Notes under the pieces: generated by a model
What the model saw: only the letters and a program-made list of their open reading frames with translations
Told to the model about the DNA's origin: nothing
Databases searched by the model: none
Part shown: piece by piece, positions 209-63,873 of the stretch
How positions within the stretch are numbered: the stretch's first letter is position 1
How the letters are laid out: every line of letters begins with the position of its first letter
Source of the DNA: Terriglobia bacterium
GTDB taxonomy: Bacteria > Acidobacteriota > Terriglobia > UBA7540
DNA length: 64,000 bases
Direction: 5' to 3'
NCBI GenBank assembly: GCA_050013575.1
Contig: JBEKEZ010000002.1
Location: forward strand, 192,736 to 256,735
Translations under genes and position numbers: made by a program

Positions 209-263
209 GTCAGAACCGAGAAGCGTCATTCTGACTTCTGGCTTTTGACTTCTTACTTCTCTT
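209..263. repeat. heptad-phased repeat array with short hairpin (H0)
   Basis: gtcagaa (209-215) pairs with ttctgac (229-235). Then five units in strict 7-nt phase: ttctgac ttctggc ttttgac ttcttac ttctctt (229-263). Confidence 0.6.
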
Positions 264-344
264 TGCGATTTGGTGTCTCGATGGTAAGGCAGGTTTCGCT
301 GCGGGCCAAGCTGAAAATGAGCGGCGATCGCGTCCTGCCATTCC

Positions 345-5441: not shown

Positions 5442-5735
5442 TCACATATTCGCCGCGCCAGTACTCAGCGCGTAGGCGTTGGTGCCGTTAAAGATGAAGC
5501 TCTGCGCACTGCATTTCGAGGCCGTCGAGCCGATAGTCATTCCCCCTAAAACGTTGGTGGGCCAGACGAAAGTATGACTGCCACCGCTGTCCTGGCAGAT
5601 GACGAAGTTGATCGTCTCGCCCGCTCTGGCGTTCGAGAGGGTCGAGCTGGTCACATTACCGGTGAGCGTGATCGTTTGCGTGTTGCCGAGCGAGGCATCG
5701 AAGGTTGGCGTGCTAGAAAAGCTGACGGTGTTGAG
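5442..5735. repeat. dispersed repeat copy 1 (encodes the shared C-terminal module)
   Basis: Nucleotide-level similarity to 54731-55024, for example aagctctgcgcRctgcatttcgaggcSgtcgagccRatMgtcatt. Both copies are 97 codons with no gaps. Confidence 0.8.
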
Positions 5736-7085
5736 CGTCCCGGCGTAGACCTTAAACACGTTTGGCAATTGCGATGTCCACGTCGCCCCTGCGGAATTAA
5801 TGAACTCTGTGGAGGAGCCGTCGATATGGCCGCGCAGGTAGTGAACGTTCGTGTTGGTGCTGTCGATGTAGAGGCCGGAACTATGTCCCCCGGACTGACC
5901 ATCCGAAAGGTGGGGATGTTCCAAGAACAGACCGTCGGTGTTAATGGCGTAAACTTCGGCGTAAGCTCCGGTTTCCCCCGCGTCGTTAAACTGCTCTCCG
6001 AGCATATGGATGCCAACGACCAGGCCATTGGTCCCATCGAGGTATACATCATACGATCCAGACCCCGCGAGGCCGTTCCCTTGATAACTGTTTCCAATAA
6101 ATGTAATGTCCGAAGTGGCGTATCCGGCGTTAGGTTTGAGATGAACGGCCCCTCCGGCAGTCACCTGGTTGCAGCCAATAAAGGTGTTTCGAGAAATCGT
6201 CATTTGGCCTATGCCGTATTCGCCGACAATGGCTCGACCCGCGATAGAAGCAAACTGCGATTGGTCAACTAGTGAGCCCGTGGTGTTTGCATTACCGTAG
6301 CGGATCCCTCCCGTCGTCCAACCAATCTGGACTTGACGAATTCGACTGAAATCAAGAGCGGCAGGACCTGGCGCGTTGAAATTTACTGCGTAACCAGATG
6401 TGTAGGCACCGCCGCCTGCCGGACCACTAAAAGTCATTTTGTCGATGTCAACAAACATCGCCTGAGTGCCGTTCAAGCGCACATGGTCGCGTGTATTAGT
6501 GTTGCCATTGATACGGAAGCCCGACAAGGTTAGCCGAGGTGATGAGTTGGCATCAGCACTAATTGCATCGGTGGCTGCACCTGTAGGATTAAACGTGAAC
6601 AACGTCGCCGCGCCGGTCAAACCGCCGTATCCAATACTGTATGGAGGTCCAGCACTGCCGCATCCGAAGACAGTCAACTGAGGTGAGCCGGTAATGAGAA
6701 AAAGGCTGCTGGCTCCGGTATACGTAAACGTCACGCCGCAACCGAGAAGAATCGTAACGTCCTTCGAGATGGTCACGGTACTCCAATTCTGTGCACCTAC
6801 AAGTCCCCGTGCATCACACGTCCCACCCGTCGCAGGCAAGCTCGCAATACAAGCGATAATCTTCGCTCCGCCGTCAGAGCCCGGCATGAGATCGGCGCGG
6901 ACAGTCGGGCCTTGAGTGTTCGGGTCAACAAACCAGCTACGGACATCGGGCATACGCAGGCTAGGGGTCTGGGGCTGTTGTGCACGCAAGCGCGCGCTGG
7001 AAATTAGAAAATGGAATACAGAAATTAGGAGGAGCACCACCAGTTGCCAATCTCCAGTTTCCAGTTTCTGACTTGGATTCTTCAT
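5442..7085 (-). CDS. secreted right-handed beta-helix (pectate-lyase/tailspike-like) protein with conserved 97-aa C-terminal module
   Basis: Leader is MKNPSQKLETGDWQLVVLLLISVFHFLISSARLRAQQPQ. The body is Gly/Thr/Asn-rich and repetitive (GAKIIACIASLPATGGTCDARG..., GNSYQGNG...). The C-terminal 97 aa are about 77% identical, ungapped, to the C-terminus of the 54731-57916 protein. The ORF track extends to 7139; ATG 7085 is preferred. Confidence 0.7.
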   Translation of the reverse strand: MKNPSQKLETGDWQLVVLLLISVFHFLISSARLRAQQPQTPSLRMPDVRSWFVDPNTQGPTVRADLMPGSDGGAKIIACIASLPATGGTCDARGLVGAQNWSTVTISKDVTILLGCGVTFTYTGASSLFLITGSPQLTVFGCGSAGPPYSIGYGGLTGAATLFTFNPTGAATDAISADANSSPRLTLSGFRINGNTNTRDHVRLNGTQAMFVDIDKMTFSGPAGGGAYTSGYAVNFNAPGPAALDFSRIRQVQIGWTTGGIRYGNANTTGSLVDQSQFASIAGRAIVGEYGIGQMTISRNTFIGCNQVTAGGAVHLKPNAGYATSDITFIGNSYQGNGLAGSGSYDVYLDGTNGLVVGIHMLGEQFNDAGETGAYAEVYAINTDGLFLEHPHLSDGQSGGHSSGLYIDSTNTNVHYLRGHIDGSSTEFINSAGATWTSQLPNVFKVYAGTLNTVSFSSTPTFDASLGNTQTITLTGNVTSSTLSNARAGETINFVICQDSGGSHTFVWPTNVLGGMTIGSTASKCSAQSFIFNGTNAYALSTGAANM

Positions 7086-7089: not shown

Positions 7090-7200
7090 CACCACGCTCC
7101 AACACTGTCGGCTGGTCCGGGCGTGCGGCGAAGGAACAAGCGAAAAGGGTACCGTCAATTATTGGCTGATTCGTTTGGCTGTAAGGGTCAAACCTTCGCT

Positions 7201-7881: not shown

Positions 7882-8022
7882 ACTCCAGGATGGTATTCCC
7901 GAATATATTACAGTTTTCTACCCAGCCTATGAACGATTCGTATTATGGCTCTCGAACGACGAATCCGCATTGCTCAGCATCACGGTGGACGACCGGGGCG
8001 CGGCTGAATTCCGATTTCTCCC

Positions 8023-35452: not shown

Positions 35453-35545
35453 CGGAAACTCGAAATTCGAAACTGAAAACGGGACGCAGAGCTTGAGTGA
35501 CCGGTTTCCACTTTCCAGTTTCCAGTTTCCAATTTCTGCTTCTCC
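35453..35545. repeat. heptad-phased inverted arms (H2)
   Basis: cggaaac tcgaaat tcgaaac tgaaaac (35453-35480), then gtttcca ctttcca gtttcca gtttcca atttctg cttctcc (35504-35545). The arms are imperfectly complementary. Confidence 0.6.
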
Positions 35546-35649: not shown

Positions 35650-37524
35650 ATGAAGCCCACGCTACGTCAAGCGATTCTGATCCTCGCATTGGCGGTAGCC
35701 ATCCTACCCGCCTCTTTCACGTCACGCGCACAGAATAGTGCGTTACCCGCACAGGCTAACGTGGTATCGCCCAGCGACCTCTCGCACGTGCGAATCGTGC
35801 GCCTGAGTTTTGTCGAGGGCACGGTGACGATGCACCGCGCCGACATGGCCGATTGGGCGGCCGCGCCAGCCAACACTCCAATTCAAGAAGGCTTCAAGCT
35901 CTCGACCGCCGAGAACAGCTTTGCTGAAGTCGAGTTTGAGAACACGTCCACAGCACGCCTGGGCCAGCTCTCCTTGCTGGACTTCGATCAGTTGGCCGCA
36001 ACTTCGAGTGGCGGCAAACTAAATCGCATGACGCTCGAGCAAGGTTACGCGACTTTCAACGTGATCCCGGAACTCACGGAGGCGTTCGAGGTGAAAGCAC
36101 AGGACGTCACCGTCACCTTTGCCGCGGCCACGGCGACGCGGTTCCGCATTGACATCGATGAAGGCGCGGTGCGTGTCGAGGTCTTCAAGGGCGCCGCGGC
36201 TGTTGCGAGTCCCTACGGCCAGCAAACCCTCACGCCCGATATGGTGGCCGAGATCCGGCCCGGCACGCAGCAAGCCTTTAGCGTTTCCATAGGCATCACT
36301 AAAGACGCTTGGGACCAATGGGTCGACGAGCGCGAAAACCAGATGTCTGTGGTTCGAAATAGCCCCAACCCCAATGGCGGCTCATACTACGGTTGGAACG
36401 ATCTCTCCAACTACGGCGACTGGAGCTACTTCCCCGGTTACGGCTATGGATGGATTCCCGGGGCACCTTACGGCTGGGGGCCCTACACGTCGGGACAGTG
36501 GTGCTGGTATTCCGGGATGGGCTATGCCTGGATCTCGTTCGAGCCTTGGGGCTGGCTGCCCTATCATTTCGGTGGCTGGCTGTTCTATCCCGGATTGGGA
36601 TGGGCGTGGTTTCCCGGAAGCTTTGGAGCGTGGTCGCCAGCGAATGTGGCTTGGTGGCAGGGACAGGGCGGGGTGGGTTGGTCGCCATTGCCTCCGGCGG
36701 GCAAGCCCGGAGTCCCGGTGGGCAGCGCCAACTGCCCTCACGGACAAACATGCGGCAGAGTTATCGTGAGGCCGGAAACAGTGCAACAAGGCAAACCTGT
36801 CGCAACTGGATTCTTGAAGGCCGATGCTGGTGAAGGGAAAATCGTTCCCAAACTGGACCTTCCTCCCAGCAAGAGCGGCATGCTGCCGGGCACAATATTC
36901 TCGCGACCTGCGTCCGCGTTGGCAGCTGGTTCAGGGCGCGAGCAGCCAGTCGGCACGCGCACTGAAGTGACGAGCGGCAGCCGCACCATCGTGGTCGGTG
37001 GACCTGGAATCGTCTTCAACCCCACAGCCGGCCGGTACGAAAACAACCCTAAATCCCAGCCACGACTGGTAACCACGCAGCCAGCGCCGGCTGCTTCTGT
37101 AAACCCGAAAGAGAATGGTGTGGCACCTTCGGCTCCCACGAACGTGCGAGATGCCGCGGCACCGGGCGCAAGACCTGCGTGGGGTTCGCGAGACTCTGTC
37201 GCTCCTAGTGCTCGATCCTCGCATTCCGAGGCGCCTTCCTACCGACCCTCGACATCCTCGGGTTCCGGTTCCTGGGGCGGCTCGCGCTCGGGATACTCGG
37301 GCGGTTCCGGATCATCTTCCGGAGGTTGGGGACATAGCAGCGGCGGCTCATCGAGCAGTGGGGGCGGGGGCAGTTGGGGATCATCGGGATCATCCCACAG
37401 CAGCGGTGGATACTCCGGCGGGAGCAGCGGCGGAGGTGGGCACAGTGGCGGCGGTGGATCCTCTGGCGGAAGCGGCGGCGGATCCTCTGGCGGGAGCAGC
37501 GGCGGAGGCACTCCCCACAAGTAA
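35650..37524 (+). CDS. secreted FecR-domain protein with Trp/Gly/Tyr-rich repeat region and Gly/Ser-rich tail
   Basis: 624 aa with GGGAGG upstream of the ATG and a signal peptide. A FecR-like beta segment (VRIVRLSFVEGTVTMH...EGFKLSTAENSFAEVEF) is followed by an aromatic block GWIPGAPYGWGPYTSGQWCWYSGMGYAWISFEPWGWLPYHFGGWLFYPGLGWAWFPG. The last ~110 aa are G/S/W/H low complexity. Confidence 0.75.
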   Translation: MKPTLRQAILILALAVAILPASFTSRAQNSALPAQANVVSPSDLSHVRIVRLSFVEGTVTMHRADMADWAAAPANTPIQEGFKLSTAENSFAEVEFENTSTARLGQLSLLDFDQLAATSSGGKLNRMTLEQGYATFNVIPELTEAFEVKAQDVTVTFAAATATRFRIDIDEGAVRVEVFKGAAAVASPYGQQTLTPDMVAEIRPGTQQAFSVSIGITKDAWDQWVDERENQMSVVRNSPNPNGGSYYGWNDLSNYGDWSYFPGYGYGWIPGAPYGWGPYTSGQWCWYSGMGYAWISFEPWGWLPYHFGGWLFYPGLGWAWFPGSFGAWSPANVAWWQGQGGVGWSPLPPAGKPGVPVGSANCPHGQTCGRVIVRPETVQQGKPVATGFLKADAGEGKIVPKLDLPPSKSGMLPGTIFSRPASALAAGSGREQPVGTRTEVTSGSRTIVVGGPGIVFNPTAGRYENNPKSQPRLVTTQPAPAASVNPKENGVAPSAPTNVRDAAAPGARPAWGSRDSVAPSARSSHSEAPSYRPSTSSGSGSWGGSRSGYSGGSGSSSGGWGHSSGGSSSSGGGGSWGSSGSSHSSGGYSGGSSGGGGHSGGGGSSGGSGGGSSGGSSGGGTPHK

Positions 37525-42304: not shown

Positions 42305-42313
42305 CCGCCGAAT

Positions 42314-42477
42314 AGTAGGCAGTAGGCAGTCGGCAGTTGGGGAAATCAGAAATCAGAAATTAGAAATCAGAATCAAAGACTCAGCGATTGAGGTTCTGCG
42401 TTCTGCTCTCTAATTTCTGCTTTCTAACTTCTGATTTCTGCTTTCTGATTTCTAATTTCTGATTTCTCCCTACTGCC
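42314..42477. terminator. long heptad-phased hairpin between convergent genes (H3), probable bidirectional terminator
   Basis: Left arm: agtaggc agtaggc agtcggc agttggg gaaatca gaaatca gaaatta gaaatca gaatcaa (42314-42376). Right arm: 12 phased units ttctgcg...ttctgat ttctaat ttctgat ttctccc tactgcc (42394-42477). About 30 bp of near-perfect complementarity (gggaaatcagaaat..tagaaatcagaa). It overlaps the stop codon of the HD gene. Confidence 0.6.
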
Positions 42478-43030
42478 CCGCCACGAGCCCCAAAGTCTCC
42501 GCGATGGCGCGCATGGCTTCAATGCAGAAGGTGATGTGCTCGTCGAGCGGCACGCCCAGCTCTTCCGCGCCCCTGATAATGTCCTCACGGCTCACCGAGC
42601 GCGCGAAGGCTTTATCCTTCATCCGCTTTCGCACTGATTTGGCTTCGAGGCTGGCGAGGCGGTCGGGCCGGACGAGCGCGCAGGCGGTGATGAAGCCAGC
42701 CAGCTCGTCGCACGCAAAAAGCGTCCTGGCCAGCGGAGTGTCGCGCGGCACGCCGGTGTAGTCCGCATGACCGAGGATGGCGCGCCGCAGATCCTCCGGG
42801 AAGCCCCGCTCTTTCAAAATCTCGCTGCCCTCCAGCGGATGATCAGGAGCGTTGGGATAAACTTCGTAATCGAAATCGTGAATCAGACCGACTACACCCC
42901 ACGTGCCTTCATCTTCGCCAAGTTTCTTGGCGTAGGCTCGCACGCAGGCCTCGACGGCGAGCGCGTGCTTTCGCAGATTCTCGTTCTTCGTATACTCGCA
43001 GAGCAACTGCCAGGCCGCTTCGCGGTCCAT
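42470..43030 (-). CDS. HD/HDIG-domain phosphohydrolase
   Basis: Start set at MDREAAWQLL (43030). Motifs: KHALAVEA, GLIHDFDY and GHADYTG metal-binding signatures. Confidence 0.8.
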   Translation of the reverse strand: MDREAAWQLLCEYTKNENLRKHALAVEACVRAYAKKLGEDEGTWGVVGLIHDFDYEVYPNAPDHPLEGSEILKERGFPEDLRRAILGHADYTGVPRDTPLARTLFACDELAGFITACALVRPDRLASLEAKSVRKRMKDKAFARSVSREDIIRGAEELGVPLDEHITFCIEAMRAIAETLGLVAGQ

Positions 43031-46080: not shown

Positions 46081-46197
46081 AGTGAAGCAGTGGCAAGTGG
46101 CGATACAGCCATCGGGTTTCGGGATTAGGGATTCGGGGTTCGCAAATCCCGATCCCACATTCATCCGCGAACCCCGAACACCGAAACCCGAATCCCC
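46081..46197. repeat. heptad-phased element with hairpin (H4)
   Basis: agtgaag c agtggca agtggcg, then gggtttc gggatta gggattc ggggttc gcaaatc (46114-46148), facing gcgaacc ccgaaca ccgaaac ccgaatc (46167-46194). The terminal 12 bp, ttcggggttcgc with gcgaaccccgaa, are perfectly complementary. Confidence 0.6.
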
Positions 46198-46314
46198 AGT
46201 CTTTCAGTGGCTTCTCACCGCCCTCGGGAGGGTGTACACTGACAATTACTCGGGGAGTGTCCCACCCAAACTCCCACCTGAGATTTTTCCGCCCGCGACT
46301 TGTGGAGACTCACG

Positions 46315-47467: not shown

Positions 47468-47693
47468 AGAAGCTGGAAGCTAGGAGTTAGAAGCTAGAAG
47501 GCAGAAGGCAGTGCGCAGTAGGCGGTGGGCCGAGGAGAGCGGGCGCGGCGCCGGAAGTGTAAGAGTGGCAAATGGGTCATGGTAAATGGGAAATGTGAAA
47601 TGGCCTGTTCGCCATTTACCATTTCCCATGGCCCATTTGCCATTTGAAATGTTTTGCTGGCCCCTCGACATTCGCTTTCTGCCTACTGCCCAC
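47468..47693. repeat. nested heptad-phased palindromic element (H5)
   Basis: Outer array of 9 phased units: agaagct ggaagct aggagtt agaagct agaaggc agaaggc agtgcgc agtaggc ggtgggc (47468-47530), pairing with ctttctgcctactgcccac (47675-47693). Inner hairpin: ggcaaat gggtcat ggtaaat gggaaat gtgaaat (47567-47601) with gccattt accattt cccatgg cccattt gccattt (47611-47645). Confidence 0.65.
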
Positions 47694-47730
47694 TTTTAGA
47701 CCGGCTTGCAGAGGACGGAATCGAGGGTAG

Positions 47731-49943: not shown

Positions 49944-51002
49944 ATGGAACCGACTGAAGCCGCCGTCGCTGCGGCCAGCGTGACTGAAGATCGCCCCGTC
50001 GAGGCGGAGGCCATCGACCAGGAGTCACGCGCTCGGAGAACAGATCCCGCGGTATTAAAAAGTCTGCTCGAGCAAATGTTGTTGATCCGGCGTTTTGAGG
50101 AGCGAGCCGCGGAGCTCTACACCATGGGAAAGATTGGAGGGTTTTGTCACCTCTATATCGGTCAGGAGGCGGTGGCAGTTGGCGCGCTTTCGACTCTCCG
50201 TAAGGAAGATTACATCCTCACCTCGTACCGCGAGCACGGGCATGCTTTGGCGCGCGGCGTCGATCCCGGCGAAGTGATGGCCGAACTCTACGGCAAGCAG
50301 AGCGGCGTCTCCGAGGGCAAGGGCGGATCGATGCATTTGTTCGACAAGGCCAGGGGATTTTTGGGCGGGCACGCCATCGTCGGTGGTCAGATCCCGTTGG
50401 CCACGGGCACGGCGTTCGCCGCAAAGTATCTCAAGCAACCGCGCGTCACGCTTTGCTTCTTCGGCGAAGCGGCGGTGAATATCGGCTCGTTTCACGAGTC
50501 GCTGAACCTCGCGGCGCTGTGGAAGCTGCCCGTCGTTTACATTTGCGAGAACAATCGGTTCGGCATGGGAACGCCGATTGAGCGCGCCTCGGCCTTGTAC
50601 GAACTTTCGCAGAAGGCTCTCGCTTACAACATGGCCCGCGCTCAGGTGGACGGCATGGACGTGCTGGCCGTGCGCGACGTGGTGATGGAGGCTGTCGAGC
50701 GGGCGAGGAATGAAGCTGCGCCAACACTGATCGAGGCGCGGACCTACCGCTTCATGGGCCACTCGATGTCCGATCCCGTTCACGGCCACTATCGCACCAA
50801 AGCGGAAGTGGAGGAGCAGAAGCGCCACGACCCGATCAGGCGCCTCGCTTCCACGCTCGAATCGATGGGGCTGATCACGCGCGAAGATATACGCGAGATC
50901 GATGGGAAGGTGAAGGAAATCGTTGAGGACGCGGTCGGGTTCTCCGAGCGCAGCGATGACCCGCACCCCTCACAGCTTTACGCCGACGTCTACACGCCGT
51001 GA
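49944..51002 (+). CDS. pdhA: pyruvate dehydrogenase E1 component, alpha subunit
   Basis: AAGGAGGG SD upstream. Motifs: LLIRRFEERAAELY, GFCHLYIGQEA and the ThDP region YICENNRFGMGT. Confidence 0.9.
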   Translation: MEPTEAAVAAASVTEDRPVEAEAIDQESRARRTDPAVLKSLLEQMLLIRRFEERAAELYTMGKIGGFCHLYIGQEAVAVGALSTLRKEDYILTSYREHGHALARGVDPGEVMAELYGKQSGVSEGKGGSMHLFDKARGFLGGHAIVGGQIPLATGTAFAAKYLKQPRVTLCFFGEAAVNIGSFHESLNLAALWKLPVVYICENNRFGMGTPIERASALYELSQKALAYNMARAQVDGMDVLAVRDVVMEAVERARNEAAPTLIEARTYRFMGHSMSDPVHGHYRTKAEVEEQKRHDPIRRLASTLESMGLITREDIREIDGKVKEIVEDAVGFSERSDDPHPSQLYADVYTP

Positions 51003-51115
51003 CGAAGAAGCGACGAGTGGCAAGTGGCGAGGAAGAGCCGCTCCCCACTGTGCCAGCCCCCTCCGGAGTCGCGAAAGGCGCGAGCCGGAAATTTGAACTC
51101 TGAAATTTGAAAAGC
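51001..51115. repeat. heptad-phased element in the pdhA-pdhB spacer (H6)
   Basis: gacgaag aagcgac gagtggc aagtggc gaggaag (51001-51035) and ggaaatt tgaactc tgaaatt tgaaaag (51088-51115). It shares the 15-mer agtggcaagtggcga with 46089-46103. Confidence 0.55.
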
Positions 51116-51125
51116 CGGAGACTAG

Positions 51126-52106
51126 ATGCCGATCATTACTTACCGCGAAGCACTCAACCAGGCCCTGCGCGAGGAATTGCGCCACGATGACCGCGTCTTC
51201 CTGATGGGCGAGGAAGTCGGCTACTACCAGGGCGCCTACAAGATCAGCAAGGGATTGTTGGACGAATTCGGACCACAGCGGGTTTTGGATACGCCCATCA
51301 CCGAGCTCGGCTTCACCGGGCTGGGCGTGGGCGCGGCCATGGCCGGCCTGCGGCCCATCGTCGAGATGATGACGTTCAACTTCGCTCTGCTCGCGATTGA
51401 CCAGATCGTGAACAGCGCCGCCAAGATGCTCTACATGTCCGGCGGACAGTGCCGCGTGCCGATGGTGATCCGCGGACCGGGCGGCGCCGGGCATCAGCTC
51501 GCGGCGCAACACTCACAAGCGCTGGAGTCCTGGTTTTGTCACGTCCCGGGTCTCAAAGTGGTCACACCGGCCACGCCCGCCGATGCCAAAGGACTCCTGA
51601 AGAGCTCGGTTCGCGATGACAACACCGTGATCTTCATCGAGTCGGAAGTGCTTTACGGAACCAAGGGCGAAGTGCCGGAGGGCGAGAATCTGATTCCGCT
51701 CGGCGTGGCGGAAATCAAAAGACCGGGCGGGCACGTCACCGTGATCGCGCACTCCAAGATGGTGCTGGTCGCGCTGGACGCTGCGCAGGAACTAGCGAAA
51801 GAAGGAATCGAAGCCGAAGTCGTCGACCCGCGCACGCTGCGTCCGCTCGATACCAACACGATCCTGGACTCAGTCAAGAAGACCAACCACGCCGTGATCG
51901 TCGAGGAAGGCTGGCCGTATTGCGGTGTGGGCGCGCAGATCTCGGATACGATCCAGCTTCACGCGTTCGATTATCTGGATGCTCCCATCTTGCGCGTGAC
52001 CGGCGCGGACGTGCCCATGCCTTACGCGAAGAATCTGGAACACGCGTGCCTGCCCGACAAAACCCGGGTGGTCGAGGCGGTGCACCAAGTTTTGAATCGA
52101 AAGTAG
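51126..52106 (+). CDS. pdhB: pyruvate dehydrogenase E1 component, beta subunit
   Basis: 326 aa. Motifs: MPIITYREALNQALREEL, GEEVGYYQGAYK and the transketolase-like Pyr and C-terminal domains. Confidence 0.92.
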   Translation: MPIITYREALNQALREELRHDDRVFLMGEEVGYYQGAYKISKGLLDEFGPQRVLDTPITELGFTGLGVGAAMAGLRPIVEMMTFNFALLAIDQIVNSAAKMLYMSGGQCRVPMVIRGPGGAGHQLAAQHSQALESWFCHVPGLKVVTPATPADAKGLLKSSVRDDNTVIFIESEVLYGTKGEVPEGENLIPLGVAEIKRPGGHVTVIAHSKMVLVALDAAQELAKEGIEAEVVDPRTLRPLDTNTILDSVKKTNHAVIVEEGWPYCGVGAQISDTIQLHAFDYLDAPILRVTGADVPMPYAKNLEHACLPDKTRVVEAVHQVLNRK

Positions 52107-52267
52107 GAATTAGGAACTAGGAACTAGGGATGGGGAATTTGGGGGCAGCGCAATTAAGAAATTCAAAAGTAAAAATTCAAAAGAAAGAACGCTCTGCTTC
52201 AATTTTGACTTTTTAATTTTGAATTGACAGACGAAAATCCTTCGTCCTTTCCTAATTCCGGATCCCT
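52104..52267. repeat. nested heptad-phased element in the pdhB-pdhC spacer (H7)
   Basis: taggaat taggaac taggaac tagggat ggggaat ttggggg (52104-52145). The first unit contains the pdhB stop codon. AT-rich inner hairpin: aagaaattcaaaagtaaaaattcaaaag with cttcaattttgactttttaattttgaattg. The outer arm is closed by cctttcctaattccggatccc (52247-52267). Confidence 0.65.
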
Positions 52268-52278
52268 GAGGAGAGCTT

Positions 52279-53721
52279 ATGGCGGCGCGTGTATTGATGC
52301 CGAAAGGCAGCGACACGATGACGGAAGGGAAAGTCCTGAAGTGGCTCAAGGGGGAGGGCGAATCGGTTGCCGCCGGCGACGCTGTGGTGGAGATTGAAAC
52401 TGACAAAGTGGACATGGAAGTTGAGACGTCGGGCGAAGGCGTTCTGCGGCAAATTCTGGTGAAGGAAGGCCAGACCGTTCCGGTGGGACAGTTGCTGGGA
52501 GTGATCGCGCCGCCGAACGAAGACATTGCGGCGATCATCAAGGAAGCTCAGGCCGCTCCACCGCCCGCGCCGCATCTCGAAGCCGAGCCAGCCCTGGCGC
52601 CCAAAGCTGCGGCGGCTCCTTCTGCGCCTGGAAGGCCCGCGGCGCCCGCCGCCGTTGGCGCGCCATCGGTTCCATCAGCACCCACGAGCGCGCGCGTCGC
52701 AGCATCCGAGCCGCAGCCTCGGCTGGCCGTGCCTGCTTCTCCGTCCCCAAGTGCAGTTGGCGAGCCCAAGGCCACGGCGGGGGCTCTAGCCGCAGTGCTC
52801 CCTCGCACCGACGGGGGCCGCGTTTTTGCGTCGCCCTTGGCGCGACGGATTGCCAGGGACAAGGGCGTGGATCTGAGCCTCGTCAGCGGAAGCGGGCCGG
52901 GAGGAAGAATCGTTCGCGAGGATGTTGACCGCGCGCTCGCCAGTGTGGCGGCCGCTCCTCTGGCGCAGGGTGCGGCAGTGGGCGGCGCAGTTCGCGCGGC
53001 GACTCCAGCGCGACCGGTCTTTGTGCCGGGTGGGCCGGAAGTCCACGACGAGCCTTTGAGCACGATGCGGAAAACCATCGCCACGCGCCTCACGCAGAGC
53101 TTGGGTCCGGTGCCGCATTTTTATCTGACCATCGAAGTGGACATGCGCCGCGCCATGGAGCTGCGCGAGTCGGCGAACAATCTCGATCCGGAATTGAAGC
53201 TGACCTACAACGACATCATCGTCAAGGCCTGCGCTGCGGCTCTGCGGGCGCATCCGGAGGTGAACGCGTCTTTCATCGGTGAAGCGATCCGCACTTACAG
53301 CCGCGTGCACATTGGCGTCGCGGTGCCTGTGGACGGCGGCGGCCTGATCACGCCGGTGATCCGCGACTGCGATCAGAAGAGCTTGCAGCAAATCTCGGAC
53401 GAGGCCAAAGAGCTGATCGCCCGCGCGCGCAGTCGGAAACTGAATCCCGACGAGTACACGGGCGCGACGTTCAGCGTCTCGAACCTGGGCATGATGGGCA
53501 TCGATCAGTTCTCCGCCATCATCAATCCGCCCGAGGGCGCGATCCTCGCCGTGGGCGCGGTGGTGGAGAAACCCGTGGTCACCGACCATCACGTCGGCAT
53601 CGGCCACCGCTGCCGGCTGACGCTCTCCTGCGACCATCGCGTGGTGGACGGAGCCACCGGCGCGAGGTTCCTCCAGACCCTGCAATCGATCCTGGAGAAT
53701 CCGGTTTACTTGGCGTTCTGA
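52279..53721 (+). CDS. pdhC: dihydrolipoamide acetyltransferase (E2)
   Basis: Lipoyl domain (VVEIETDKVDMEVE), an Ala/Pro linker, a peripheral-subunit-binding domain (ASPLARRIARDKGVDL) and the catalytic motif DHRVVDGA. Confidence 0.92.
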   Translation: MAARVLMPKGSDTMTEGKVLKWLKGEGESVAAGDAVVEIETDKVDMEVETSGEGVLRQILVKEGQTVPVGQLLGVIAPPNEDIAAIIKEAQAAPPPAPHLEAEPALAPKAAAAPSAPGRPAAPAAVGAPSVPSAPTSARVAASEPQPRLAVPASPSPSAVGEPKATAGALAAVLPRTDGGRVFASPLARRIARDKGVDLSLVSGSGPGGRIVREDVDRALASVAAAPLAQGAAVGGAVRAATPARPVFVPGGPEVHDEPLSTMRKTIATRLTQSLGPVPHFYLTIEVDMRRAMELRESANNLDPELKLTYNDIIVKACAAALRAHPEVNASFIGEAIRTYSRVHIGVAVPVDGGGLITPVIRDCDQKSLQQISDEAKELIARARSRKLNPDEYTGATFSVSNLGMMGIDQFSAIINPPEGAILAVGAVVEKPVVTDHHVGIGHRCRLTLSCDHRVVDGATGARFLQTLQSILENPVYLAF

Positions 53722-54005: not shown

Positions 54006-54431
54006 TTACACTCGGGCATGCGCGAACCCGAGAAGCCTTCTCCGACCGAATCGCCGATGTTGTTTGATCCCGCAAAGCGGGACCGAGCCCGCATCGGAAT
54101 CGCTCACGGCGCTGGGCGTAGCGGGGAAGCGAATGCCCCACATGTCGCCTTCCGCCTGGAGGAGTTGAAGGCCGAGATGGTAGAACCCCTCGCGGTCCGT
54201 GGTATTCACCCAAACGACGCTGAAGGTGCCTGCGACGTCGTTCTTCGTGCTCACCACGTGTACCTCTGAGTCCAGTTCCACAAGATTCTTGATCCGAGTC
54301 ATGCACCCGTGCTGGCTGATCAGGATGGTTTGTGTCGATTCGTCAAAAAACTTGTTTTCTGTGGACATGCCGCGCACTCGAATGGGCAGAGCTAACATCA
54401 CTCGAGCGCTTCTGCGGCGGGCGTCATCCAT
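54006..54431 (-). CDS. PilZ-domain protein
   Basis: 141 aa. An RRSARV...PIRVRG N-motif followed by a D/ExSxxG-like segment ESTQTILISQHGC. Confidence 0.55.
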   Translation of the reverse strand: MDDARRRSARVMLALPIRVRGMSTENKFFDESTQTILISQHGCMTRIKNLVELDSEVHVVSTKNDVAGTFSVVWVNTTDREGFYHLGLQLLQAEGDMWGIRFPATPSAVSDSDAGSVPLCGIKQHRRFGRRRLLGFAHARV

Positions 54432-54730
54432 CTACATGTCGATTCAATAAAATAGCGAGGAGCGCCCGTTCACGTCTTGACACGACCTCCCCATCCCAGG
54501 TTTCCCCAGGACAGGCAATTCCCCCGTTCAAGCTTATCGGGTTATTTTACCACGGCTTGAGGCGAGCGGCGGGGAGCGGCTCGTTGGGTAGGGCGGAGAA
54601 CTCTTGCATCTTCCCAGTTGTGGCCCAATCGAGGAAGGAAAGTGCACTCGCAAGTCATCGCTGGCCGTCCGGCTTTTGGGAATTCTGACCGCGCATGACA
54701 CAGTCCGATTTCAAGAGATCGGCAACGCCC

Positions 54731-55024
54731 TCACATGTTAGTGACGCCTGGAGAGGTTGCTTCCGCGTTGCTGCCGTCGAACACAAAGCTCTGCGCGCTG
54801 CATTTCGAGGCGGTCGAGCCAATCGTCATTGCGCCCTTCACGTTTGAGGGCCAGACGAAGGTCCTGCTGCCGGTCGAGTCCTGGCAGATGATGAAGTTCA
54901 ATTGCTCGCCCGCAGAAGCGTTGGCGAGCGTCGAACTGGTGACGTTGCCGGTGAGCGTAATCTTTTGGGTGTTGCCGAGGGACGCGTCGAAGGTAGGCGT
55001 CCCTGAGAACGTCACGACGTTCAG
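54731..55024. repeat. dispersed repeat copy 2 (encodes the shared C-terminal module)
   Basis: See 5442-5735. My hand count is 75 of 97 identical residues, with no gaps. Confidence 0.8.
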
Positions 55025-57916
55025 TGATGTGGCAAAGTTTCGCGCCGTAACCGCGCCCGTGCCGCTAGGCGTGAGTGTGACGTTCTGGTTCGTTCCGCCC
55101 GCGGTGAGCGAGATGGCGCCGGTCGACGTCACGCCCCCATTGATCACGGGCGAGGTCAGCGTCTTGTTAGTCAACGTGTCGACAGAAGCCCTGTAGACGA
55201 AGGTGTCGGTCACGTCTTGCAGGGTCTGGGTGCGCGCGCCTGTTGCCGTGCCGGTGACTTTGATGTTGTTGGTAGCCGCACTGCCCAGCCACAGGTTGCC
55301 GAACGGGAGCGAGGCCGACCCAAGGTCCCCGACGCCGGCGGAGGAGGGTGTGATCGTCTGCGGTACGCTGAGCGCGCTCGCTCCGAAGATATAAGATTTG
55401 GTGCCGTTCGAGGCTGTCAAGACAAACTGTGAAGACGAAGGATTGAGGTAGAGAGAGTCCGACCCCGCAGCGTCAGAGTTTATCATGTCGTAGACGGGCT
55501 GATTGGCGGAACAGTTCGTGCCCGTGTTGACGGGGGTCCCGTTATTCACTTGCGCAGCCGGGCAGCCAATCCGGATGGCTGCGCCACCGTAAACGCTGGG
55601 GGCAGTCGGGAGCCACATTCCGTAGAAGAATAGCCCTTGAGCAGTGATCACGGCAGGCGGCGAGAAGGGAGCCCCATTGACATAGTCCGCATACTCTGAC
55701 GGGTCGTTCAAATTTTGGACGCCAATCGCATTTTCGCTCCTCTGCCATCCGTGCCCGGACAGTTGAATCAGCATCGTGCTGCTCGGCGCGTTCCCCACGT
55801 AGGGCAATAATTTGTGCACGCCGGAGAACACGTTCGCGCTGGAATCGAATTGCCAGTAGTGTTGATTTTCGACCATCTCGCCGCTTGCCCAGTTGACGTT
55901 GTTCGGGGCCAGCGTTGCCGTGTCCGAAAGCTTCCCGTTTTGCTGCCACGAAAGAACCTCGGCCCCCGGAAAAACGTAGTACTGGTTGGACTGCTGCCAG
56001 CCCGTGCAGGTGGGTGGCGAGCAGCTTCCGCTGATCCCATGGCCGGAGTAACCGATTCCGTTGTTGCCAACCGCCCATGGAATCAGGTGGGAGCTGTCAG
56101 TGACGGCAAGTATCGGGAACGCCTGACGAACACAGTTCACCGCGGGCGAGACTCCGCACGTCGAACTATATCCAGCCTCGCCGTAACGGTCCGAGACCAA
56201 CTCGACATAGTAACCCGCGCAGGCTCCAGCGTTGCCCGATGCGCACGCGCCACCGTTGGCAATGCTCACTACCGCTCCCGGAGGGTGCGGCTTATTGAAA
56301 GTCGCAGTGAAGGCGGTTTGAGGGTTTCCGGAGAAGGCAGTGGCTTTCACAATTTCGTAACTTCCGTCATCGCCGATGACGATGGGCGTGTTAGTGGTGA
56401 CACCGCTCAAGTTCGTCCCCATGGTGTAACTGGCCGGCGTCACTGTGCAGGTGGCAGGCAGGGTGGTAGTAGGGTTGCAGTTCGGACCCGGGATCGCAGC
56501 GTCGGTCAGGGCCAGCACGGTGTTCGCAGTCCACGACGTGCCGTTGCCAACATACTGCGGCCAGGTCCATGCGCCGAGGTTATACGTCCCAAGGGAAGAG
56601 AGCGTGCCATTGCTGCCTTTGGAAATATCGAGCAACGGGCGCCCGGCGCCCTGCTCGGTCTCGGACTGGAGATTGCTCACGGTGATCTGCGTGGCCCCTT
56701 GAGATAATGCAGGGCAGGAGGGCGGACCACAGATCGTGCCGGAGTATACGTCACTCACCTGATAAGCGGTGAAGCCGGCCGACTCCAACCCCTCGTCACC
56801 CATCGTGCTCGCGCCTCCGTAGTTCATGCTCAACACTTCGAGGCCGATGGTGTCGCCCGTCGCCCCGCTGAGCGTCTGGATGCTCAGAGGAATGTGTTCA
56901 GCAGGCGTGTAGTACTGTCCGGCGATGTTAACGGCCTTGAAGACGCTTTTGTCGGCGTAATAGGGCCAGTTGTAGAGATTCCTTCCGCCATCAAAGACCT
57001 TCTGGGAAAACTCGTTTTCCACTACATTCATGAACTGAGTATAGCCGCTGCTTCGGTAGCGATTCCCCACCCACTGATTGCCGACGATGAGATTCGGAAG
57101 GCCGCCGCTGTCAGTCGCGTTGCCCGGCGAATCGTAGTTGGTGACGTGAAGCCCGTCGCGGAAGTCCCAAACCTGGAGATTGGGACTATTCGAGCACCCA
57201 TTGGAGTTACCTGTCATCGAGGTGATGCCGCTGTAGATACTGCCCGCGCCGCAGATTGCCTCCGTGGAGCTGGACTTGCTCGCGGGATTCACGATGAGCG
57301 CGCCGTTCGTTCCGGCATTTGAGATGGCGCTGGCACAAGGCGTGGAACCGGAAAATTGGTCGCAGAATCGCGTGGCCTCGACGTGACCCGTGGAGTCGGT
57401 GCCCAGCGGCTGCGGCACAGACCAAGTTCGCACGTCGGTGATCGAGTTGATGGACGAGCTCCCCGTGCTGACTTCCGCCAGAGGGACTTGACCGGCGACG
57501 AAGCCGCTGGTGTTAGAGGCCGGCACACAGTTATTGGCTGGGTCCAGATACACGTAATTCGTCGCGCTCGCGGTCATGGGCAGGGTGCCGCCGGGATAGC
57601 TGACTGGGGCCTGCGGATTGCCGCAAAAAGCCGTTCCCGCGGCAATGTTCACGTTGGGCCAAGTCCCCGCCGTCACCCAATAGCCAGGACCCACGCCCTG
57701 GACGTACTTCGCATTGACGGCGTAAACGGGCTGGCCGCCTTCCGCCTGCGGCTGCTGCCCCAAAACTAGTGACGAGTGACGAGTGAAGAGTGACGAGCAA
57801 GTTAGAACGACCACGATCAGAGCAACTCGCAGCGCATCGTGCCCGTTCCGACCCCTGACTCCTGACTCCTGACTCCTAACTTCTAGCTTTTGACTTTTAG
57901 ATGCTGCTTTCAACAT
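54731..57916 (-). CDS. large tail-fibre-like secreted protein (1061 aa) with conserved leader and C-terminal module
   Basis: GAGGTG SD 5 nt before the ATG. Leader: MLKAASKSQKLEVRSQESGVRGRNGHDALRVALIVVVLTCSSLFTRHSSLVLGQQPQ. Fibre-type motifs: DLGSASLPFGNLWLG and DTLTNKTLTSPVING. The Gly/Thr/Ser/Asn/Cys-rich body and the C-terminal 97 aa are shared with the 5442-7085 protein. Confidence 0.75.
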   Translation of the reverse strand: MLKAASKSQKLEVRSQESGVRGRNGHDALRVALIVVVLTCSSLFTRHSSLVLGQQPQAEGGQPVYAVNAKYVQGVGPGYWVTAGTWPNVNIAAGTAFCGNPQAPVSYPGGTLPMTASATNYVYLDPANNCVPASNTSGFVAGQVPLAEVSTGSSSINSITDVRTWSVPQPLGTDSTGHVEATRFCDQFSGSTPCASAISNAGTNGALIVNPASKSSSTEAICGAGSIYSGITSMTGNSNGCSNSPNLQVWDFRDGLHVTNYDSPGNATDSGGLPNLIVGNQWVGNRYRSSGYTQFMNVVENEFSQKVFDGGRNLYNWPYYADKSVFKAVNIAGQYYTPAEHIPLSIQTLSGATGDTIGLEVLSMNYGGASTMGDEGLESAGFTAYQVSDVYSGTICGPPSCPALSQGATQITVSNLQSETEQGAGRPLLDISKGSNGTLSSLGTYNLGAWTWPQYVGNGTSWTANTVLALTDAAIPGPNCNPTTTLPATCTVTPASYTMGTNLSGVTTNTPIVIGDDGSYEIVKATAFSGNPQTAFTATFNKPHPPGAVVSIANGGACASGNAGACAGYYVELVSDRYGEAGYSSTCGVSPAVNCVRQAFPILAVTDSSHLIPWAVGNNGIGYSGHGISGSCSPPTCTGWQQSNQYYVFPGAEVLSWQQNGKLSDTATLAPNNVNWASGEMVENQHYWQFDSSANVFSGVHKLLPYVGNAPSSTMLIQLSGHGWQRSENAIGVQNLNDPSEYADYVNGAPFSPPAVITAQGLFFYGMWLPTAPSVYGGAAIRIGCPAAQVNNGTPVNTGTNCSANQPVYDMINSDAAGSDSLYLNPSSSQFVLTASNGTKSYIFGASALSVPQTITPSSAGVGDLGSASLPFGNLWLGSAATNNIKVTGTATGARTQTLQDVTDTFVYRASVDTLTNKTLTSPVINGGVTSTGAISLTAGGTNQNVTLTPSGTGAVTARNFATSLNVVTFSGTPTFDASLGNTQKITLTGNVTSSTLANASAGEQLNFIICQDSTGSRTFVWPSNVKGAMTIGSTASKCSAQSFVFDGSNAEATSPGVTNM
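57778..57902. repeat. two heptad-phased arrays inside the leader coding region (H8)
   Basis: agtgacg agtgacg agtgaag agtgacg agcaagt (57778-57812) and cctgact cctgact cctgact cctaact tctagct tttgact tttagat (57854-57902). About 5 of 7 positions per unit are complementary between the arrays. Confidence 0.6.
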
Positions 57917-57999
57917 ACGATCACCTCATGGACCTGGCTTCAAAATCACCAGCAAGGGCAGGCCTTAATTCAAAGTCGTGCGCTAATGGCGCCGCACGC

Positions 58000-58662
58000 T
58001 TACCAAATCTGAATGCTCGCCGTGACCCCCGCATCCGAGGCGGTGAGATACAGGTTGGTAGCGTCGAACAGAGTTGTTGGTTGAAACCACAGCGCTCCGC
58101 CGGAGGTCATGTAAATGATTGCGCCCAGCGGTGCCCGCCCAAGATTGTGGTTAGTTGAAAAATTGCCCGCTGCCGCGGCACTCACGGCCAGCCGACCGTA
58201 AACCTTGGTGGCGTTTGTCACCGCGAGGACGTGGGTCGCGTCGGTGGTCACGCTGCCGAGATATGCGTCGCCCGGCGTTGCCGGCGACCCCGTCAGATTG
58301 AAATAGAACCCGGTGATCGAACTCCACCACAGGAAACTCGTGGAGCTGGCCGGCGCCGCTGAGGGGGTCGGGGACGAAGGAGCCCAGCGCATTCCTTGCG
58401 CGTAGAGCACTCCCGGTGAAAGACCCGGCGTCAAATTCGCCGAAGTTGCAAGCGTGAAGCCGGCGATCACACCAGATAGGCCAATGTCGCCAAGCCACGC
58501 GGCGACAGTCCCAGCGGCCAGGACCGCATTCCGGACGTCGTTGGCGTCCTGCAAAAGCGAGTCAATGGTCTGCCAGTTGGTGTCCAGGTCAGTTTCGTAG
58601 TTGTTTCCGTGCTGCGGCTCGATAATTCCTTTTCGCGGCAAAACTGTTCTTACGATCGCCAT
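58000..58662 (-). CDS. short tail-fibre-like protein (220 aa)
   Basis: Start set at MAIVRTVLPRKGIIEPQHGNNYETDLDTNWQTIDSLL. This has the LP-x-P...W...N...ID pattern common at the N-termini of phage fibre and minor tail proteins. The C-half is Ala/Gly/Thr/Ser-rich and beta-like. The ORF track extends to 58815. Confidence 0.6.
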   Translation of the reverse strand: MAIVRTVLPRKGIIEPQHGNNYETDLDTNWQTIDSLLQDANDVRNAVLAAGTVAAWLGDIGLSGVIAGFTLATSANLTPGLSPGVLYAQGMRWAPSSPTPSAAPASSTSFLWWSSITGFYFNLTGSPATPGDAYLGSVTTDATHVLAVTNATKVYGRLAVSAAAAGNFSTNHNLGRAPLGAIIYMTSGGALWFQPTTLFDATNLYLTASDAGVTASIQIW

Positions 58663-58672
58663 GTTCGAAATC

Positions 58673-58707
58673 CAGGAATCGGGGATAGGGGATTCGAGAT
58701 TAGCCAA
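58673..58707. repeat. heptad-phased array (H9)
   Basis: caggaat cggggat aggggat tcgagat tagccaa, immediately upstream of the 220-aa gene start. Confidence 0.5.
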
Positions 58708-58760
58708 AGCAAAAGGCGCTTCGGCAAACCCCGTTCCCCAGCTCCTAAGCCCTGACCTCC

Positions 58761-59264
58761 TTAATCTGATGAGACTCCGAGCGGCAGATTCACGCTCGAT
58801 CTTGTGGCCAAGCAATACACTTTCACCGTGCCGTCATTAGTCGGGGTTTCTGCGCCGCCCCCCACGTAGTAACTGACCACCGTGGTCACTATGCCGTTGG
58901 CGTCGTTGATGTCCACGATCCATCTGTAAATTTGTCCCGCGCCGCCGTTTGAATTCGAGAGCGACGGGAAAGCAGTTTGTCCCGGCGTGAATCCCGGCCC
59001 CGGCGGGCGGCTCGCTGCAAAAATAGGGATGAACAGGCACTCAGGATAAGAATACTGGTAACCATCGACCGGGCTGGCCGGCACGGGCACGGTGTTCCCA
59101 TTTGCGTAGAAGCCCATATAAATCAACTCGGGGCGCACCGCGGCAAACTTGGCGTTCTGCGAGATCTTGATCATGGAATAGTCGGTGAGCGGCTGGTTTG
59201 CCGAAATCGAGGCGTCGGGCAAATCGATGAAACCGGGTATGGCGCTGAGCAATAGCTGGGACAT
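58761..59264 (-). CDS. hypothetical protein (167 aa)
   Basis: ATG preceded by a GAGGAG SD. No signal peptide and no family recognised. It is co-oriented between the giant protein gene and the fibre-like genes. Confidence 0.6.
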   Translation of the reverse strand: MSQLLLSAIPGFIDLPDASISANQPLTDYSMIKISQNAKFAAVRPELIYMGFYANGNTVPVPASPVDGYQYSYPECLFIPIFAASRPPGPGFTPGQTAFPSLSNSNGGAGQIYRWIVDINDANGIVTTVVSYYVGGGAETPTNDGTVKVYCLATRSSVNLPLGVSSD

Positions 59265-59345
59265 GGTTAATCTCCTCTATAATTGCCGAAGGCGGATGGA
59301 CGAATGAAAGCGCTTTGTTCCAATCATCAATCGTCGTGCAAAAAT

Positions 59346-63803: not shown

Positions 63804-63873
63804 CGTGCCTCCGCCACCCCTGTCGCCGATGAACGACCGTGGAACTTTTTCCACCCATCAGCAAGCGTCCGGA

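Follow-up and report, generated by a model that had tools for sequence, protein, structure and literature searches.

What is a tandem array of 7-nt repeats doing at the very start of a gene whose product appears to be secreted? The question is raised by two genes in a 64,000-nt stretch of DNA from a Terriglobia bacterium (Acidobacteriota; contig JBEKEZ010000002.1, positions 192,736 to 256,735 of the forward strand), referred to throughout as the window. Gene A encodes a tailspike- or fiber-like protein and gene B a beta-helix-like protein; in both, a leader containing two arrays of heptamers ends at the tetrapeptide QQPQ. An earlier reading of the letters alone (the sequence-only reading), centered on codons 1–46 of gene A (57778-57916), had proposed that the arrays write a signal-peptide-like leader, that they might fold into a control hairpin, and that gain or loss of a unit might switch the gene on and off. 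Comparison of the two genes with their relatives argues for the first of these proposals. With a probability that we put at roughly 0.7, the 5′-end of gene A specifies a long, cleavable Sec-type signal peptide written largely by an inverted heptamer-array element, and gene B a shorter version of the same. It is improbable that the leader serves as a regulatory hairpin or as an on/off switch.

Paired heptamer arrays at the start of genes A and B

The plan said to be common to the two proteins is borne out by translating the open reading frames (ORFs): both contain SQKLE and both contain QQPQ. The four 7-nt arrays thought to encode the intervening leader proved less uniform. Each was assessed by the number of self-matches at lag 7, with an empirical p obtained by comparison against all windows of equal length. 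Arm 1 of gene A is where it had been placed (57854-57902; 33/42 matches, p = 3e-4) and reaches a little further, to ∼57848. Arm 2 is displaced by ∼10 nt: at the site first proposed for it (57778-57812) merely 14/28 positions match (p = 0.017), and position 57778 cuts through the array, the true site of which is 57768-57797 (the core called by Tandem Repeats Finder (TRF); 21/23 matches, p = 2e-4). Both arms of gene B are degenerate. Its arm 1 (7041-7089) shows 23/42 matches (p = 0.008) with a TRF core at 7040-7068; its arm 2 (6999-7033) shows 15/28 (p = 0.012) and TRF makes no call. The leader of gene B follows the plan of gene A, but is shorter and more degenerate. The peptide motif TRHSSL, encoded by arm 2 of gene A, is kept in orthologues.

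Partial complementarity of the arms, also proposed from the letters, holds to a modest degree: in each gene 15/21 positions agree in the best 21-nt inverted match, with z values of 1.9 for gene A and 3.8 for gene B.

In a sister strain the first arm of gene A has diverged sharply (57848-57902 in the window versus 2745-2800 in locus L066): there are 16 substitutions in 45 nt, against a difference of 2.3% elsewhere. Of the two copies, that of the window is the more uniform, with three identical AGGAGTC units, which suggests homogenization within the array at constant length. Mutagenesis of the type caused by diversity-generating retroelements was considered as the source of this burst and rejected, because the changes are not adenine-specific.

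The reading frame is held open through the arrays

A search for relatives recovered 63 related loci, and a leader could be defined in 54, genes A and B included. Between the start codon and QQPQ these 54 leaders contain no stop codon in the frame of the mature protein, whereas the remaining frames have 167 and 73; counted over the n-region only, the figures are 0, 72 and 63. The arrays are evidently not stop-free in every frame: it is the in-frame stops that are selectively missing. Two relatives illustrate this. In L047 the one copy of the unit CTTCTAG that would put TAG in frame reads CTTCTGG instead, and CGA stands in place of a TGA in L027.

The position of the start can be judged separately from the ORF. 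At 45 of the 54 loci the gene begins ATGGTGA or ATGGTAA, with the ATG overlapping the stop codon of the conserved upstream gene and AAGGTG before it. A start defined in this way does not depend on which ORF was chosen, and nonetheless the frame runs open from it. In gene A an 84-nt spacer takes the place of the overlap.

Public versions of the two genes do not agree. Gene A appears as a protein of 1061 aa (from ATG), 1027 aa (from GTG, ‘MVVLTC’) or 1010 aa (from TTG, ‘LGQQPQ’), and gene B as one of 547 or 503 aa. That gene callers are split, and that the other heptamer elements in the window are mostly non-coding, are facts in keeping with a different explanation: the arrays would be an untranslated 5′ hairpin element, with translation starting at TTG ‘LGQQPQ’ or GTG ‘MVVLTC’ in gene A and at ATG ‘MPDVRSW’ in gene B. 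We consider this highly unlikely. It is at odds with the open frame and the specific removal of in-frame stops among the 54 relatives; moreover, a ribosome-binding site is found at the upstream ATG and none ahead of the downstream candidate starts, and most relatives lack a start codon at or near QQPQ. A start at QQPQ would also strip the signal peptide from a family whose array-free members clearly have one. The comparative evidence favors the long forms of both genes as the probable products.

The leader resembles a Sec-type signal peptide

The signal-peptide-like character of the leader finds support in the family as a whole, in the open frame as well as in charge, hydropathy, the residues at –1 and the array-free relatives. 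The n-region is positively charged in 51/54 leaders, with a median of +5; in gene A the segment ahead of the hydrophobic window carries a net +3. Kyte-Doolittle means over the best 12 residues are 2.65 in gene A (LRVALIVVVLTC) and 2.85 in gene B (LVVLLLISVFHF...), for a family median of 2.43 and a minimum of 1.68, and the best window ends a median of 7 residues ahead of QQPQ. At –1 the residue is A in 37 leaders, G in 5, C in 3, S in 1 and P in 8 (A/G/S/C in 46/54); at –3 it is most often A (22), L (17) or V (5). In gene A itself position –3 is V and position –1 is G, an acceptable combination. The junction of A, G or C with QQPQ is kept in more than 100 relatives.

Relatives that lack arrays are particularly informative. 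They carry canonical signal peptides of 18-21 aa ending at the same junction (L039, L052, L055, L062, P0075, P0078, P0081), examples being MKRILGFILAIVALPALA–QQPQ, MVKRLIAALIVVASTFVAQA–QQPQ and MRKSILLALLLALVPACQA–QQPQ. Members of the family reached via gene B have other mature N-termini (ANLNNIRYADQFPG..., GEFKARKIVSS...), and in this group the same position is taken by an array-coded leader in some proteins and by an ordinary signal peptide in others. The array-coded leaders are long: 53 aa in gene A, 35 aa in gene B and 33-85 aa in most family members.

Two other kinds of export signal were rejected on inspection of both leaders: a lipoprotein signal, because there is no lipobox (Thr occupies –1 of Cys), and a Tat signal, because there is no twin-arginine motif. 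A search with the leader only, against 1.84 billion representatives, gave 3 matches.

To judge from these sequence features, the fiber family is secreted and the array-coded segments occupy the positions of the n- and h-regions. The assignment of the leader as a putative Sec-type signal peptide is supported, and we infer that it is exported and cleaved.

From inverted array to probable signal peptide

Nearly all of ∼170 fiber-family proteins have the same order of parts: an array-coded basic segment, an array-coded hydrophobic segment, then A, G or C followed by QQPQ. For most of the 54 leaders, self-matching at lag 7 amounts to 0.45-0.62, versus 0.2-0.3 at other lags. The two halves differ in composition, with a purine fraction of 0.63 in the first and 0.34 in the second; in 52/54 leaders it is the first half that has more purines. 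R, S, G and K abound in the n-regions and L, A, F, S and V in the h- and c-regions; at the level of the arms, those rich in purines encode K/R/S/E/Q and those rich in pyrimidines L/F/S/T/C.

In the genetic code, a codon with A at its center has as its complement a codon with U at its center, and it is because of this complementarity that an element whose purine-rich arm comes first reads as charged and then greasy. The relationship is visible in pairs of peptides that are mutual reverse-complement translations: KVESRKLKVES and LSTFNFQLST, IMNYEF and FIIHNS, ANSELRIANSE and FAISYSL. It extends to A/T-rich elements in the window's intergenic DNA. When these are translated in every frame, the 5′ arms are hydrophilic (∼–0.2 to –2.6 on the Kyte-Doolittle scale) and the 3′ arms mostly hydrophobic (∼+0.5 to +2.4). 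Outside the leaders (three leader pairs removed), purine-first and pyrimidine-first pairs number 9 versus 3. A rule that would place the purine arm first relative to transcription in all elements was rejected, because an inverted repeat reads alike on both strands and only the ratio between classes is informative.

The following scheme would connect these observations. The two leader arrays would be the paired arms of one inverted heptamer-array element, of a kind that is scattered through the genome. Such elements are predominantly purine-rich-arm-first, with A/G-rich codons supplying K, R, E, S, Q and G and the complementary codons L, F, S, T, C and V, so that translation of a purine-first element would yield a charged and then a hydrophobic segment: the plan of an n-region followed by an h-region. 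The leader could host elements in frame, as it would be cleaved off and would put up with nearly any sequence of that plan, and most relatives have no intergenic space for an element, their start codon overlapping the upstream stop. Selection would then keep the frame open, in-frame stops being mutated away and changes in length occurring in multiples of three, and the same selection on frame would limit how complementary the arms can be. In genes A and B the element would be old and decayed and its stem weak or absent, while some relatives have a near-perfect hairpin. We infer that insertion or expansion of an element of this genomic type gave rise to the arrays; the leader arrays might also have some role at the RNA level.

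A second family of secreted proteins bears on the scheme. To this family, with the mature N-terminus ATKVF..., belongs a protein (L069 421..1914) in which no sequence similarity to gene A or gene B was detectable. Some members carry an ordinary signal peptide (MRRIVLVLILLFVAGPLQA–ATKVF), others array-coded leaders (MSKVKSQKLKVESRRLKV...FLLAFNFQLSTLDCFS–ATKVF and ...LLVTCHLSLVTVTQA–ATKVF), and the cassette types TFNFxLST, VTCHxSLV, VNCxLSTV and KVESRK are common to the fiber and ATKVF families. On this evidence, inverted heptamer elements of Terriglobia recurrently form the predicted signal peptides of at least two unrelated secreted families. A wider proposal can be offered only tentatively, and we think it rather doubtful as it stands: that Terriglobia carry, throughout their genomes, actively renewing inverted heptamer elements which, owing to the opposite hydropathy of sense and antisense codons, are portable signal-peptide cassettes, installed independently in unrelated secreted proteins (KVESRK...TFNFQLST, ...VTCHxSLV), which would be under selection at the nucleotide level and would serve both as export signal and as structured element at cistron boundaries.

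Signs of nucleotide-level constraint and the question of a hairpin

Several observations weigh against the signal-peptide reading set out above. The n-region of gene B has a net charge of 0 (2 K versus E and D), and gene B has Leu at –3, albeit with Ala at –1; in the family, the Pro found at –1 in 8/54 leaders is unusual for signal peptidase I. The hydrophobic region had been held to be array-encoded in both genes. For gene B this is so (LLLISVFHFLIS from arm 2), but for gene A it is only partly so, for the hydrophobic core VALIVVVL (57826-57803) falls in the spacer, outside the arrays. The conserved gene cluster to which gene A belongs (see below) shows weak phage-tail similarity, and Sec export is not normal for the fibers of phage-tail-like modules. 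Finally, in 10 alignable species pairs, identity at the three codon positions is flat in the leader (0.80/0.84/0.81), whereas in the adjacent mature region it is 0.91/0.93/0.66. The flat pattern points to constraint at the level of nucleotides, which the tolerated insertion of an element does not explain by itself.

The higher conservation of third positions in the leader than in the mature region (in 9/10 pairs) also counts in favor of another account, in which the paired arrays are mainly a cis-regulatory RNA or DNA hairpin affecting translation, transcription or mRNA stability and their coding of a leader is secondary. The stem of gene A folds marginally better than shuffled sequences: the minimum free energy is –62.6 kcal/mol over 191 nt (z = –1.7) and –47.0 kcal/mol over 141 nt (z = –2.3; 3/200 shuffles as good), and the leader proper gives z = –2.8. 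Across the family, significant inverted repeats (z > 2) occur in 28/51 leaders, and fold z is below –2 in 19/54 and below –3 in 10/54. A few near-perfect nested hairpins lie wholly inside the coding leader, that of L047 reaching –85.4 kcal/mol (z = –8.5). Intergenic copies are found between operon cistrons, in the manner of stabilizers of the repetitive extragenic palindromic (REP) type.

Much of the remaining evidence runs in the opposite direction. The fold of gene B is not significant (z = –0.6, –1.0 and –1.5). In the sister strain, which is 97.5% identical, all 16 changes are in arm 1 and 0 in arm 2, leaving z = –0.05. The stem of gene A extends from ∼+26 to +155 relative to the AUG, so that the ribosome-binding site and AUG are free. 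No U-tract or terminator-like site is present at gene A; promoter and terminator scans gave nothing there, and upstream of gene B they picked out a single weak promoter-like site. The family mean z is merely –1.4, and sense folds are not stabler than antisense ones (35/54). Compensatory pairs are scarce in two subfamily alignments (2/49 and 4/59), in which the arms are conserved between species and there are few compensatory changes to judge by. A gathering-threshold scan of the whole window against Rfam returned no match. The arms of gene A pair in register, with mismatches in most heptads; part of the mismatch is forced: an arm perfectly complementary to GGAGTCA would read TGACTCC and bring TGA into frame at every third unit.

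A paired structure that is mainly regulatory is, on balance, unlikely. Of the mRNA stem proposed in the sequence-only reading there remains a marginal fold in gene A and none of significance in gene B, with the start codon outside the stem, and a control function at these two genes is weakly supported at best, given the folds, the sister strain, the stem position and the lack of a terminator-like tail. Genes A and B may carry decayed copies of an element class for which a role at the RNA or DNA level is possible.

Length of the leaders and the question of a phase switch

Seven is not a multiple of three, and it had been suggested that the arrays form a slipped-strand phase-variation switch in which gain or loss of one 7-nt unit shifts the frame and turns the fiber gene off or on. 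Out-of-frame stops do lie within the arrays, so that a slip would truncate the protein, and non-coding arrays of the same kind vary in unit number between close strains. There is also one leader, that of L004 (1360-1520), which at 140 nt (20 × 7) has its ATG and QQPQ in mismatched frames; this could reflect a mistake in assembly or sequencing, or else a genuine off allele.

The leader tracts themselves are short and imperfect. They contain at most three identical units (AGGAGTC x3), and TRF reports matches of 77-92% over 4-5 units. Contigs from 4 independent metagenomes for gene A and 4 for gene B show 0 differences and 0 gaps across the leaders, although contigs hide minor alleles. Leader length is equal among cluster members and in strains that are 90-97.5% identical, species within subgroups share exact lengths (183, 186 or 177 nt), and differences between species are multiples of three, for example +30 nt. 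All of ∼58 relatives except L004 are in frame. Non-coding arrays change while leader length is fixed: the arrays are thus mutable, and the copies in leaders are held in frame by selection. The pattern fits purifying selection, not a switch. With tracts this short and imperfect, no polymorphism seen in leader length and 1/∼58 relatives out of frame, the suggestion of a frame-shift switch finds no support, and we regard it as most improbable.

Heptamer-array elements across the window and in related genomes

A scan of the whole window with 28-nt windows (threshold at least 22 self-matches, lags 3 to 12) shows period 7 to be the sole enriched period: 74 windows pass at lag 7 and 0 at any other lag. 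TRF finds ∼20 period-7 arrays. Nine loci have paired or nested inverted heptamer arrays, and the unit sequence differs at each. Seven of the nine are non-coding and had escaped the sequence-only reading (Table 1). The density is about one element per 7 kb, mostly between genes, including gaps between divergent genes. Three of the intergenic loci (at 42313, 46108 and 47468) fold far better than shuffled sequences, as the z scores in Table 1 indicate.

Table 1. Positions of genes A and B, of their leader features and of the other heptamer-array loci in the window (z, fold stability relative to shuffled sequences).
Feature	Position	Strand	Description
TTCTGAC array with short purine-rich partner	215..265		Upstream of class II aminoacyl-tRNA synthetase gene; fold not significant
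Gene B	5442..7085 (from own ATG)	(-)	ORF, 547 aa; predicted secreted beta-helix-like protein
Gene B predicted cleavage region	6969..6983	(-)	SARLRA–QQPQ; predicted from sequence features
Gene B arm 2	6999..7034	(-)	Degenerate, CTAATTT-type; encodes putative h-region LLLISVFHFLIS
Gene B arm 1	7040..7073	(-)	GAAACTG-type heptamers; encodes SQKLETGDWQL
Inverted arrays GAAACTC / GTTTCCA	35455..35540		Intergenic, between NusG-like gene and FecR-domain gene; z = –1.7
Nested inverted arrays, outer AGTAGGC/CCTACTG, inner GAAATCA/TGATTTC	42313..42482		Between convergent genes; z = –5.7
Inverted G/C-rich arrays, GGGATTC-type / GAACCCC-type	46108..46202		Intergenic; z = –4.3
Nested inverted arrays	47468..47700		Between two MacB/FtsX-type permease genes; inner hairpin z = –6.8
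Short GAAATTT array	51088..51112		In the gap between pyruvate-dehydrogenase E1-alpha and E1-beta genes, just upstream of the E1-beta ribosome-binding site
Nested inverted arrays	52093..52262		Between E1-beta and E2 cistrons; sister strain differs
Gene A	54731..57916	(-)	ORF, 1061 aa; predicted secreted tailspike/fiber-like protein
Gene A predicted signal-peptidase site	57746..57760	(-)	Between G53 and Q54-Q-P-Q; predicted start of mature protein
Gene A arm 2	57765..57802	(-)	Pyrimidine-rich, CTCGTCA-type; encodes TCSSLFTRHSSLV, putative end of h-region and c-region
Gene A spacer, 45 nt	57803..57847	(-)	Loop of weak stem; encodes NGHDALR and hydrophobic core VALIVVVL
Gene A arm 1	57848..57902	(-)	Purine-rich, AAAAGTC AAAAGCT AGAAGTT AGGAGTC x3 AGGGGTC; encodes putative n-region SKSQKLEVRSQESGVRGR
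Shine-Dalgarno-like GAGGTGA	57921..57927	(-)	4 nt upstream of ATG 57916-57914

Units recur from place to place. That of arm 1 of gene B (CCAGTTT at 7040) is found again at 35504-35536, and an ACTGCCT-type unit is present both at 42313 and in the leaders of L036, L044 and L046. Nevertheless, 130 arrays from the window and 65 related loci comprise 75 unit types that have no common sequence, only the period and the symmetry of the arms. In metagenome contigs the gene A arrays stand out as spikes in depth of 10- to 100-fold; the same units therefore occur at many other places in these communities.

In the 2-oxoacid (pyruvate-type) dehydrogenase operon (49944-53721; E1-alpha, E1-beta, E2), arrays occupy both intercistronic spacers. 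The E1-beta/E2 element varies between 97.5%-identical strains: one of them lacks the inner hairpin, and there are extra units on both outer arms. The array at 46108-46142 (GGGTTTC GGGATTA GGGATTC GGGGTTC) contains four G3 tracts.

Arrays are also found inside genes. A homologue of 1441 aa (in L068) of the 1502-aa gene of the window has short in-frame arrays (5237-5270, 5951-5984 and 7724-7760), for example GFGIGNPESGIP, which the window's own copy lacks, and L068 2986-3063 is an inverted heptamer pair within a 277-aa gene.

Repeats of other kinds are present as well. In L069 (9870-9990) three tandem ∼40-nt GC-rich hairpin repeats (GCCGGCCCCGCCCTTCGGGGTCCCGGAGAACCGGATT) replace heptamers just 5′ of the called fiber start, and in three related proteins (P0021, P0024 and P0035) such ∼40-nt repeats are translated in frame within the n-region; the leader seems to accept repeat types besides heptamers. 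A 24-nt tandem repeat (AGCAGCGGCGGATCCTCTGGCGGG x4.5) lies at 37399-37506, near the 3′-end of a FecR/DUF6600-domain gene (35650..37524).

Genes A and B and their neighborhoods

The product of gene A consists of an N-terminal part, QQPQ...NAKYVQGVGPGYW, and a C-terminal PF26209 domain (Phage_phiTE_241_C); a C-terminal domain is common to genes A and B. Sequence searches of genes A and B against Pfam, PHROGs and PDB gave no match. Homologues of gene A always come from metagenome-assembled genomes of Terriglobia/Acidobacteriota, and the locus is near-identical in 20 peat, wetland and soil metagenomes, with 0.99-1.00 of sampled words present.

Gene A is the last member of a cluster that is conserved throughout the Terriglobia (58000-63854 in the window, minus strand; also in L067, L068 and L069). 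The order is a protein of 1300-1500 aa, one of ∼165 aa, one of ∼220-270 aa, and then the fiber; in the window the first of these, the 1502-aa neighbor of gene A, has weak matches to tail-fiber PHROGs. What flanks the fiber cluster varies by genome: the 2-oxoacid dehydrogenase operon in the window, CorA elsewhere. The sister strain (L066 5916-5930) lacks ∼350 nt found 3′ of gene A (∼54300-54730 in the window), beside which the small gene calls differ between the window and the sister strain.

Gene B is surrounded by a polysaccharide-synthesis cluster (2910-9198). Judged solely from ORF translations read by eye, its neighbors resemble a CapD-like dehydratase, a sugar transferase and a DegT-type aminotransferase. 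Such surroundings would suit a secreted glycan-cleaving enzyme better than a phage fiber.

Implications

If the signal-peptide reading of the leaders is true, they are a natural case of a repeat of non-coding type being read as a working protein-targeting signal, and they reveal a simple, code-based route by which export signals may arise or be replaced. There are consequences for annotation, given that public pipelines differ by up to 51 codons on these starts: peptides such as SQESGVR and TFNFQLST at the N-termini of Acidobacteriota proteins would be real leader sequences rather than artefacts. More generally, these abundant peat and soil bacteria harbor a dense family of heptamer hairpins that was previously undescribed as far as literature searches reached. 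The family turns the origin of the 7-nt ruler, and its function at operon junctions, into testable questions.

Comparison with known systems

Like other Sec (signal peptidase I) peptides, the leaders combine a positively charged n-region with a hydrophobic h-region, and in most of them a small residue precedes the putative cleavage site; a long N-terminal extension is tolerated. Extended signal peptides exist in some autotransporters. The leaders are unlike ordinary Sec peptides in their 7-nt repeat structure, which gives a 7-aa super-period, and in evolving as a nucleic-acid element.

Heptameric repeats are already known to be over-represented in bacteria. Examples are the short tandemly repeated repetitive (STRR) sequences of cyanobacteria (Calothrix/Nostoc), GGGAATC in Xanthomonas and GGGGAYT in Nostoc (PMC4692102); the Xanthomonas and Nostoc arrays are intergenic, sometimes inverted and variable between close relatives (PMC4692102). 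TAACTGA heptamers occur near start codons in Beggiatoaceae, cyanobacteria and Bacteroidetes (PMC4679880); the same paper reports CspB as binding a single heptamer per protein. The Terriglobia arrays resemble these in being present at many, mostly intergenic sites, in varying between strains and in being able to form stem-loops. They differ in that diverse units coexist, typically in complementary or nested pairs. Most Terriglobia units are distinct from STRR1-3, GGGAATC and TAACTGA; only the array at 46108-46142 resembles G-rich repeats of the GGGAATC type, which in Xanthomonas form quadruplexes (PMC4692102). The papers on known heptamers, all from other phyla, describe no in-frame translation as a signal peptide, and TAACTGA is untranslatable in forward orientation. 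In literature searches of incomplete coverage we found neither heptamer arrays in Acidobacteriota nor repeat-encoded signal peptides.

Phase-variable systems, too, have simple repeats at the 5′-end of genes whose products are surface proteins or are secreted. In Haemophilus influenzae, 7-bp repeats upstream of hmw1A tune expression (PMC8262952, PMC12721329). The leaders share this location with hmw1A and with surface genes that carry tetranucleotide repeats, and with hmw1A they share the 7-nt unit. Phase-variable tracts, however, are long, perfect and variable within populations, whereas the Terriglobia leader tracts are short and imperfect, with no length polymorphism seen.

REPs are described as 20-40-bp units with conserved sequence tags that are linked to RAYT transposases (PMC3733652). 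With REPs and bacterial interspersed mosaic elements (BIMEs) the Terriglobia elements have in common that they are short, hairpin-forming repeats in intergenic or intercistronic spacers, as between the pyruvate dehydrogenase cistrons here; the REPs and BIMEs so described lack the 7-nt periodicity of the Terriglobia arrays.

A parallel in coding DNA is provided by the Rickettsia palindromic elements (RPEs), repeated palindromes that are inserted in frame into genes (reviewed in PMC10969869). As with RPEs, the Terriglobia elements occupy both coding and non-coding sites, are read in frame, and have their open frame maintained. RPEs, however, are ∼150 bp long, conform to a family consensus and lie within the bodies of metabolic proteins, whereas the Terriglobia elements are tandem heptamers of no fixed sequence that lie in what is probably a cleaved targeting peptide. 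Heptamer arrays and in-frame palindromes are both of known kinds; the novelty would lie in their doubling as export signals.

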